The notes beneath the pieces were generated by a model. It was not told the DNA's origin. It saw nothing but the letters and a program-made list of their open reading frames with translations, and did no database searches. Below, one piece after another: positions 181 to 1,251 of a stretch of 8,624 nucleotides of DNA. Positions within the stretch are counted from its first letter, which is position 1. Every line of letters begins with the position of its first letter. Source of the DNA: a virus (lineage: Monodnaviria; Loebvirae; Hofneiviricota; Faserviricetes; Tubulavirales; Inoviridae); the IMG/VR virus record IMGVR_UViG_2541047910_000001; one strand, 5' to 3'. The translations under genes and the position numbers were made by a program.

Positions 181-1251
181 TTAGTTGGTAAATCTGTACC
201 TGATACACGAGAATGCAAGGCTGACTTCGGTTGTTACATCACGCTTGATAAGGGTTGGCGAGTTATTGACGCCGGTTTCAGTGGTCACAAAGTTGGAAAG
301 CTGCTGCTGAATCTTGAGATCCATTGTCCGACTTTTGATTGATGGCGTCACGTTAAACAAAACACCGCTGGAACGATATTCAACGGATTGCGTTGTCGTA
401 TTGTTATTCACCGTAACACTGCCCAGTACTGGCACATCAGAGCCGACTGAAAAAGACGCTGAGGCATTATTTTTTACCCGCAGTCGTGGCGCACTGACAA
501 CAGTAAAACGACTGTCGGTTTTCAGCAGATTGAAAATGGCATCAATGGAGCCGGTTCGAATATTGATAAAATTATCCAGTCCGGCAGCACCAACTGAAAT
601 ATTGAATTTATCAGACAGAATTTTAGCCGCTAAAAGAATGCCGGAGCCGTCAGACTGCGAGGTCTGAACCTCAAAAACATAACCAGAAACAACCACTTCA
701 TCACTCATCGTATCCAGCGAAGTGACCAGTGTTTTCAGGATGGCGATATCCTCTTTCGTACCATAATAAACCAGAATATCACCGGTTCGATTGATGTAGT
801 TGCTTGCCCCTGATGAACCTTTTAGCGAATCGTCAGAAATCACGGCTCCACTGTTATTGAAGGAGCCTGAAACGTAGCCGCCAAGAATATCAGACAGGTA
901 GGCAACAGAACGGTACTGAGGCGTATAAGTCCATGTATAACGTGGCTTAACCGGCTCTTTCGGCGTATAGGGCGCGATAAAATCAACACCCTTTTTCGTC
1001 CATATTCGAATGTTCATATTGCCAAGATAACGGGTTACAAATTCCCGTTCATCAATATCAGGTGTTAACCTGAATGTAATCATTCGTTCATCATTAACAA
1101 GCTGTGGATCTAGCATATACGGGACTTTAAGCACCTCACTGTAAATAAGAGAAATAGCCTCCGGTAGCTTGACTTTATTTAATTCAAGCTCTGACCCTGC
1201 GAAAGCACATGAAGAAAATAGTAGCGTTAATGCGAGTAAAATCTTTTTCAT
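181..1251 (-). CDS. pIV-like secretin-family protein (signal peptide, N0/N3-like region, secretin core), apparently C-terminally truncated
   Basis: N-terminal signal peptide MKKILLALTLLFSSCAFA; secretin-like segments ILVYYGTKEDIAILKTLVTSLD, VVSAPRLRV, VEYRSSGVLFNVTPSI, SPTLIKRDVTTEVSL; last gene of the morphogenesis operon; start overlaps the Zot-like stop (TAATG). The expected C-terminal gate motifs are not seen. Confidence 0.6.
   Translation of the reverse strand: MKKILLALTLLFSSCAFAGSELELNKVKLPEAISLIYSEVLKVPYMLDPQLVNDERMITFRLTPDIDEREFVTRYLGNMNIRIWTKKGVDFIAPYTPKEPVKPRYTWTYTPQYRSVAYLSDILGGYVSGSFNNSGAVISDDSLKGSSGASNYINRTGDILVYYGTKEDIAILKTLVTSLDTMSDEVVVSGYVFEVQTSQSDGSGILLAAKILSDKFNISVGAAGLDNFINIRTGSIDAIFNLLKTDSRFTVVSAPRLRVKNNASASFSVGSDVPVLGSVTVNNNTTTQSVEYRSSGVLFNVTPSIKSRTMDLKIQQQLSNFVTTETGVNNSPTLIKRDVTTEVSLAFSCIRYRFTN

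Follow-up and report, generated by a model that had tools for sequence, protein, structure and literature searches.

Filamentous prophages of the CUS-1/Ypf-phi type have been linked to fitness in invasive Escherichia coli and in Yersinia pestis (PMC4266046). In Ypf-phi (Y. pestis) and CUS-1 (E. coli O18:K1:H7) the genes are arranged in the order repressor, Rep, G5P, coat proteins, pIII/PuvA-like protein, DUF2523 protein, Zot and secretin, and the prophages are integrated at dif, with dif or half-dif flanks; disruption of YPO2279, a gene of the secretion module, abolishes particle production by Ypf-phi (PMC4266046). The secretin through which such phages leave the cell has been described structurally for f1, whose pIV protein is divided into N0 (residues 1-88), N3 (108-172) and a secretin domain (175-405), with Gate 1 between Gly267 and Gly297, Gate 2 at about 321-335 and a conserved arginine, Arg337 (PMC8563730). 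Each secretin subunit gives four strands to a 60-stranded outer barrel, the C-terminus of pIV sits at this barrel, and a C-terminal His-tag is enough by itself to inactivate the f1 protein (PMC8563730). Some filamentous phages are also established users of host secretins (PMC8563730, discussion).

The stretch of DNA analysed here, 8,624 nucleotides long and referred to throughout as the window, is one unit of a dif-integrated filamentous prophage of the CUS-1/Ypf-phi type. Its organization agrees with the description of Ypf-phi/CUS-1 (PMC4266046), with which it shares the integration site and the gene order; it differs from them in lacking 880 bp, comprising 68 secretin codons, a YPO2280a-like gene, a hairpin region and most of a YPO2281-like gene.

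The prophage and its integration site

The window is 100% identical to scaffold KE701908.1 of E. coli UMEA 3185-1, where the dif locus holds a single prophage copy between hipBA and the host cupin/CMD/hydrolase genes. Its core genes are nearly identical and colinear with those of Ypf-phi/CUS-1, and its dif-derived flanks lie at the chromosome terminus with hipBA adjoining (Table 1). A search for the full 28-nt dif, allowing up to 3 mismatches, gave no match in the window, inside which only half-sites lie; in the relative E. coli D8, the complete dif reads GGTGCGCATAATGTATATTATGTTAAAT, and a second half-dif stands directly 3' of the position equivalent to window 8624. Two things fall short of the type, namely a complete secretin domain and a complete gene set, the latter examined for the secretion module YPO2279-YPO2280 and the attR-side ORFs YPO2280a/YPO2281, and both are explained by one deletion. 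Megablast of the whole window against a phage collection gave no match, so that Ypf-phi/CUS-1 are evidently not among the phage records held there; the link to them was made via E. coli genomes and a scan of genome contigs. Among 5,426 complete E. coli genomes, about 120 carry the same prophage; tandem or multiple copies are common in these other strains, the median being 2 places per genome.

The secretin start codon overlaps the stop codon of the Zot gene (TAATG). At the other end of the window, the genes of 6432-8539 are also present in E. coli D8. The cargo module (7468-8539, plus strand) adjoins hipBA, and no methylase gene was seen beside the REase-like one; in strain NGF1 the cargo position is taken by a gene of the STM4504/CBY_0614 family (L002 1929-2858), and the cargo module is thus variable. 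On the dif side of the prophage, the host genes for a 163-aa ORF, the cupin, CMD and an alpha/beta hydrolase are whole in UMEA 3185-1 (L012 11372-15067), and the same genes are annotated in D8 as a string of pseudogene fragments (L001 4346-7835). The first 183 nt of the window, treated as single-stranded DNA, fold more stably than shuffled controls (z -3.0) and contain an inverted pair, GGCCTGA...TCAGGCC, at about 141-163; this fold may have relevance to Xer-mediated phage integration.

Table 1. Features of the prophage unit, with window coordinates, and the parts removed by the deletion
Feature	Position	Strand	Evidence or remark
Half dif site (TACATTATGCGCACC), prophage/chromosome junction	1-15	.	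In E. coli D8 runs on into complete dif
dif-proximal prophage end, kept on the far side of the deletion	1-214	.	Equals E. coli D8 L001 8001-8214, no difference
Foreign tail FSCIRYRFTN and stop	181-213	-	3' remnant of the 65-aa ORF, read out of frame
Deletion junction	214	.	Single T common to both flanks; coding strand CTTGCA/TTCTCG (slash at the junction)
Secretin gene remnant, codons 1-345 and two bases of codon 346	215-1251	-	Pfam PF00263; PDB matches to GspD and f1 pIV
Zot/pI-like assembly ATPase, partner of the secretin	1251-2276	-	PF05707 Zot, E 2e-26
Rest of phage core, DUF2523/pVI-like to Rep	2280-6260	-	All intact
DUF2523/pVI-like, 570-aa pIII/PuvA-like, two small coat-like ORFs, G5P-like ssDNA-binding protein	within 2280-6260	-	
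gII-type Rep	5208-6260	-	Intact
Repressor-like HTH gene, divergent	6432-6878	+	Pfam match
140-aa ORF	within 6432-8539	+	
DpnII/MboI-like REase-domain protein, attL-side cargo	7468-8262	+	PF18742, E 7e-59
DUF6953 protein, attL-side cargo	8273-8539	+	Pfam match
Deleted: secretin codons 347-414 and stop codon			
Deleted: 88-nt spacer			
Deleted: whole 82-aa ORF			YPO2280a-like
Deleted: 196-nt intergenic region			Strong hairpin as ssDNA, z -3.2
Deleted: first ~46 codons of the 65-aa ORF			YPO2281-like

A secretin without its C-terminus

The ORF at 181-1251 (minus strand) encodes 356 aa and ends in ...TTEVSLAFSCIRYRFTN-stop. An earlier note, made from the letters of this DNA, had read the protein as a pIV-like secretin with recognisable N0/N3-like and early secretin-core segments, cut short at its C-terminus, and the present comparison bears this out. 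Residues 243-345 match positions 2-111 of the 169 of the Pfam Secretin profile PF00263 (E 5e-16; 59.2 bits against a cut-off of 27.5), and sequence searches of the PDB matched GspD secretins (E 7e-11) and f1 pIV over the same part. An N-terminal signal peptide can be read directly from the sequence (start MKKILLALTLLFSSCAFA/GSE), and the AlphaFold model of an intact homologue places periplasmic alpha/beta N domains at residues 24-96 and 162-200, with fold matches to the N domains of EscC, MxiD and XcpQ. By every test except completeness, the gene IV homologue of the window is a secretin; what the 356-aa protein lacks is the rest of the secretin domain, with its DGxxxxxGGL strand, conserved loop and terminal strand. 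The C-terminal part of the profile is left unmatched, so that no compact complete domain is present, and the 414-aa secretin of D8 reaches profile position 138 from position 2 with 87 bits, against 59 bits for the 356-aa protein. The two proteins (the longer one being that of D8/Ypf-phi) are identical over residues 1-346 and first differ at residue 347; the last 10 residues of the shorter are foreign, the 65-aa ORF from whose remnant they are read ending as ...DSRVSGTDLPTNWMNRPDW in another frame. Nor are the missing 68 residues encoded elsewhere in the window, where tblastn gave a chance match only (E 0.45), in agreement with the earlier note, which had seen no such motifs in the other frames of positions 16-180.

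A global alignment to the f1/M13 pIV sequence, near-identical to PDB 7OFH, locates the break at residue 346 of the 405 in mature f1 pIV, past both Gate 2 and Arg337, and leaves the 356-aa protein without equivalents of residues 347-405. Opposite Gly267 of f1 (GQNVPF) stands SFSVGSDVPVLG, and the equivalents of Gate 2 and Arg337 (..LIKRDV) also precede the break; judged from this alignment, both gate loops are retained. The description of the missing part as the gate region, which the earlier note had given, has therefore to be abandoned, since the counterparts of Gate 1 and Gate 2 lie before the break. The same note had listed as missing the DGxxxxxGGL strand, the counterpart of the VPxLGDIPxLG motif and the final strand, and here it was right: aligned to the family profile, Vibrio cholerae GspD has DGQMLVLGGL...VPLLGDIPLLGQLF...NLMVFIK as the counterpart of the lost stretch. 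Compared with f1 pIV and GspD, the intact phage family carries SGWSFFG / TGFSFLP as the diverged form of VPxLGDIPxLG, and its S-domain is absent. The AlphaFold model of the intact homologue P0040 has a mean pLDDT of 75, and only secretins, the f1 structure 7OFH included, figure among its best matches in the PDB. After the breakpoint it contains strands at 353-356 and 362-366 and a long terminal one at 381-394, and the lost 68 residues are accordingly predicted to comprise the last three beta-strands and the C-terminus of the intact relative. These strands can be provisionally assigned to the outer barrel, on the basis of the monomer model and the general description in PMC8563730.

Intact relatives and the ancestral form

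The intact 414-aa secretin is found in E. coli D8, in UTI89 (an O18:K1:H7 strain), in a circular episome of about 9.5 kb and in Y. pestis Ypf-phi, and its sequence occurs on at least 1,000 contigs. In D8 the secretin is followed by the 82-aa and 65-aa ORFs and then by dif. The secretin of Y. pestis NCTC5923 is 100% identical to that of D8 over 414 aa, and the DNA of the two is 99.6% identical over 4.6 kb, colinear through Zot, secretin and both small ORFs. The region is full-length, defined as one place covering at least 80% of 1.3 kb, in about 89 of the 121 matching complete E. coli genomes. Furthermore, 38 homologues with 48-77% identity, from other Enterobacterales and relatives, measure 394-424 aa, so that none has the length of the 356-aa protein, and every one of them continues past the breakpoint with the pattern DGDIILLGGLAE.K....G.SF......E..KTDI.V.LQ..KV, a segment which the 356-aa protein lacks. 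Because of the identity with Ypf-phi, the majority among E. coli genomes and the 38 full-length homologues, the intact form is ancestral.

Multiplicity is also seen in these relatives. Y. pestis NCTC5923 (NZ_UAVH01000007.1 111188-126171; L016/L017) has a tandem Ypf-phi array with two secretin copies about 8.7 kb apart. Record NZ_CP128883.1 (L015; 9,565 bp) from E. coli TUM14759, labelled an "untypable plasmid", is a circular copy of the genome of a closely related phage; it has both small ORFs and an intact 414-aa secretin, and presumably represents a replicative or episomal form of the phage; TUM14759 has chromosomal prophage copies as well.

Extent and mechanism of the deletion

The comparison with D8 delimits the lesion to the nucleotide. 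Window 1-214 corresponds to D8 L001 8001-8214 and window 214-8624 to L001 9094-17504, the span measuring 9,504 bp in D8 and 8,624 bp in the window, an 880-bp difference; the deleted DNA, L001 8215-9094, is internal to the prophage. Over the 8.4 kb of window 214-8624, DNA identity with D8 is 99.99%, the one base difference being synonymous, at 5772 in Rep. Window 156-214 is the last 59 nt of the YPO2281-like ORF (L001 8156-8353 in D8). The small ORFs were matched to YPO names by gene order in PMC4266046, and neither (82 aa, 65 aa) has a Pfam match. The intergenic region between them (L001 8354-8549) carries a hairpin with 21-nt arms (8437-8457 / 8460-8480), and its fold as single-stranded DNA is much better than those of shuffled controls; it may be a cis-acting phage signal, e.g., a packaging signal or an origin. 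The same hairpin region is also lost or halved in the deletion variants of NGF1 and FDAARGOS_1261.

The deletion ends share 1 nt of microhomology, no direct repeat crosses the endpoints in the comparison of the window with D8, and a 75%-complementary inverted repeat lies near the endpoints and not at them. Since no repeat spans the endpoints, the deletion is of the illegitimate kind. Slipped mispairing between repeats was considered and rejected, there being no spanning direct repeat and only the 1-nt microhomology. An IS-mediated origin was likewise discarded: the window has no IS remnant, and other alleles have their breakpoints at various places in the gene. A second secretin variant of 356 aa (P0002, with the tail EALLNKSNFC) results from the insertion of IS903B (IS5 family), whose inverted-repeat end, GGCTTTGTTGAATAAATCG, starts 2 nt from the position of the deletion junction (window ~212-214) in two metagenome contigs (L010 5023-5094, L011 2774-2901). 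This closeness is probably a coincidence, because breakpoints elsewhere are scattered and the window contains no IS remnant.

Reality of the allele and origin of the truncation

The exact 356-aa sequence corresponds to GenBank EQX67514.1 (assembly GCA_000460655.1), and three readings would make of it something other than the product of an internal deletion. The first point to settle is whether the truncation could be a sequencing or assembly artefact of one draft genome: the UMEA 3185-1 assembly is indeed a draft, and the junction occurs in 0 of the 5,426 complete E. coli genomes. Against this, the junction is present in contigs from at least six other datasets, the 356-aa protein and the identical junction occurring together in Logan SRR22389126, SRR22389128, SRR22389130 and ERR4036834, in the JGI metagenome 3300029058 and in the ENA metagenome ERZ28616348. 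Two of the junction contigs, from ERR4036834 and SRR22389130 (L013/L014), have further private deletions, so that the datasets do not all go back to a single assembly: one lacks window 2299-2565 (the DUF2523/pVI-like gene) and the other window 5485-6281 (the 5' part of Rep and the upstream region). As several independent assemblies share the junction, the truncation is not an assembly artefact, a reading to which we leave almost no weight; the allele is real and rare. A cause in integration itself, or in recombination at the dif attachment junction, is suggested by the stop codon lying only 180 bp from the half-dif at the window start, and the earlier note had suggested that the gene may have been truncated near this junction. 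This attribution failed, since the 214 bp beside the half-dif, including the half-site and the 3' end of the last phage ORF, are untouched, identical and colinear with those of intact prophages; because the dif-proximal 214 bp are intact, integration is not the cause. The identical dif junction is moreover found in prophages with a 414-aa secretin, and the deletion endpoints show no dif-like sequence or repeat, all of which makes an origin at the attachment site exceedingly improbable. It is just as hard to credit the 356-aa protein as a naturally compact, complete and functional secretin. Its ORF is open and has a signal peptide, N domains and equivalents of both gate loops, but PF00263 stops at 111 of 169, all 38 aligned homologues are longer and share a conserved C-terminal segment, its final 10 residues are read, out of frame, from what is left of another ORF, and none of the 5,426 complete E. 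coli genomes contains the allele. The internal 880-bp deletion is the cause of the truncation.

A deletion-prone prophage family

Deletion derivatives are known among filamentous phages in the form of miniphage or defective genomes and decaying prophages, and the window adds one allele to the many with internal deletions in this prophage family. Fusions of the types Zot-secretin, Rep-secretin and pIII-secretin are on record in the protein database, as are in-frame internal deletions of the secretin, and two other deletions fuse the secretin to the 65-aa ORF. The breakpoints of these alleles are scattered along the secretin gene; NGF1 and FDAARGOS_1261 have other deletions downstream of an intact secretin. 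Chimeric ORFs include P0032-P0034, P0038, P0041, P0049 and P0084, the last one being a Zot-secretin found on 66 contigs. The representative of the 90% cluster that holds the 414-aa secretin is a 570-aa pIII-like protein, an oddity probably due to such fusions. Unlike other deletion derivatives, the window has a junction seen in no complete E. coli genome and has everything else left intact; unlike tandem arrays with a helper copy, the UMEA 3185-1 prophage stands single at its dif locus. The private deletions of the junction carriers fit continuing decay; additional deletions are also present in relatives with an intact secretin (NGF1), and they are therefore not specific to the truncated allele.

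Probable consequences for phage export

Our overall reading, to which we assign a probability of roughly 80%, is that of a single-copy CUS-1/Ypf-phi-type prophage in which one 880-bp deletion has truncated the secretin and left the element export-defective. An illegitimate deletion with 1 nt of microhomology has hit the dif-integrated prophage of UMEA 3185-1 and joined codon 346 of the secretin (the gene IV/YPO2280 homologue), in the wrong frame, to what remains of the 3' end of a small ORF downstream. The 356-aa product keeps the signal peptide, N0/N3, the inner-barrel strands and both gate loops, and lacks the last 68 residues of the intact protein. With the last three strands gone, and from what is known of f1 and Ypf-phi, the channel should fail to form: a subunit without its final strands would be unable to complete the pentadecameric double-walled barrel. 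Deprived of a phage-encoded outer-membrane channel, virions would not be extruded, barring complementation in trans by the secretin of a co-resident phage or, possibly, of the host. Most likely, then, the prophage is unable to export particles on its own, a reading that draws on homology and on the work on f1 and Ypf-phi. The suggestion of the earlier note that the prophage is defective for virion export or dependent on another secretin survives as a probable one, by inference from those systems (PMC4266046; PMC8563730). The same deletion also removed the structured intergenic region and two accessory ORFs, and the loss of that region may add a cis-acting defect. The truncated ORF is still open, with the signal peptide and the coupling of its translation to that of Zot both preserved; it may be expressed, and a residual or altered function of the 356-aa protein is conceivable. 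We regard the element as a defective prophage at an early stage of decay, and the case as ordinary prophage decay of a known phage.

A productive prophage served in trans is an unlikely alternative; the secretin would come from a second filamentous prophage, from an episome or from the host (GspD, for instance), the last as happens with phages that have no secretin gene of their own. In its favour, the remaining phage genes are whole, with protein products no different from those of an intact relative; strains with tandem or multiple copies are common (median 2 places per genome); an episomal form of about 9.5 kb exists in strain TUM14759; and it is established that some filamentous phages make use of host secretins (PMC8563730, discussion). 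What weighs against such rescue is that the dif locus of UMEA 3185-1 has only one copy, that the phage Zot/pI presumably evolved alongside its own secretin, that the deletion also takes the structured intergenic region, possibly with cis-acting signals, and that two carriers of the allele lack further essential genes. We hold it to be more doubtful still, with odds that are quite slim, that the truncated secretin has been retained or domesticated, as a decoy or through selected loss, or that codons 346-347 are a hot spot. As a decoy, a secreted fragment made of N0-N3 and the gates may act as a dominant negative and block the assembly of related filamentous phages, whether superinfecting or co-resident. 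Under selection, the deletion may have ended costly virion extrusion and secretin-induced envelope stress, and fitness-associated genes (puvA-like pIII, REase-like cargo) may have been kept. The independent IS903B insertion 2 nt from the junction is what suggests that codons 346-347 may be prone to breakage or insertion. Export loss through the internal deletion remains the reading we prefer.

Significance

The finding matters little beyond annotation: the phage group was already known, and the allele belongs to a defective prophage of the ordinary kind. In annotations the gene ought to appear as a truncated secretin pseudogene and not under the names "hypothetical protein" or "GspD"; the prophage in UMEA 3185-1 and its relatives is best regarded as probably non-productive. 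The allele adds one more data point to the many internal deletions and gene fusions that CUS-1/Ypf-phi prophages accumulate, and since so many different deletions and fusions occur in this family, a genome that carries the prophage need not harbour an active phage.
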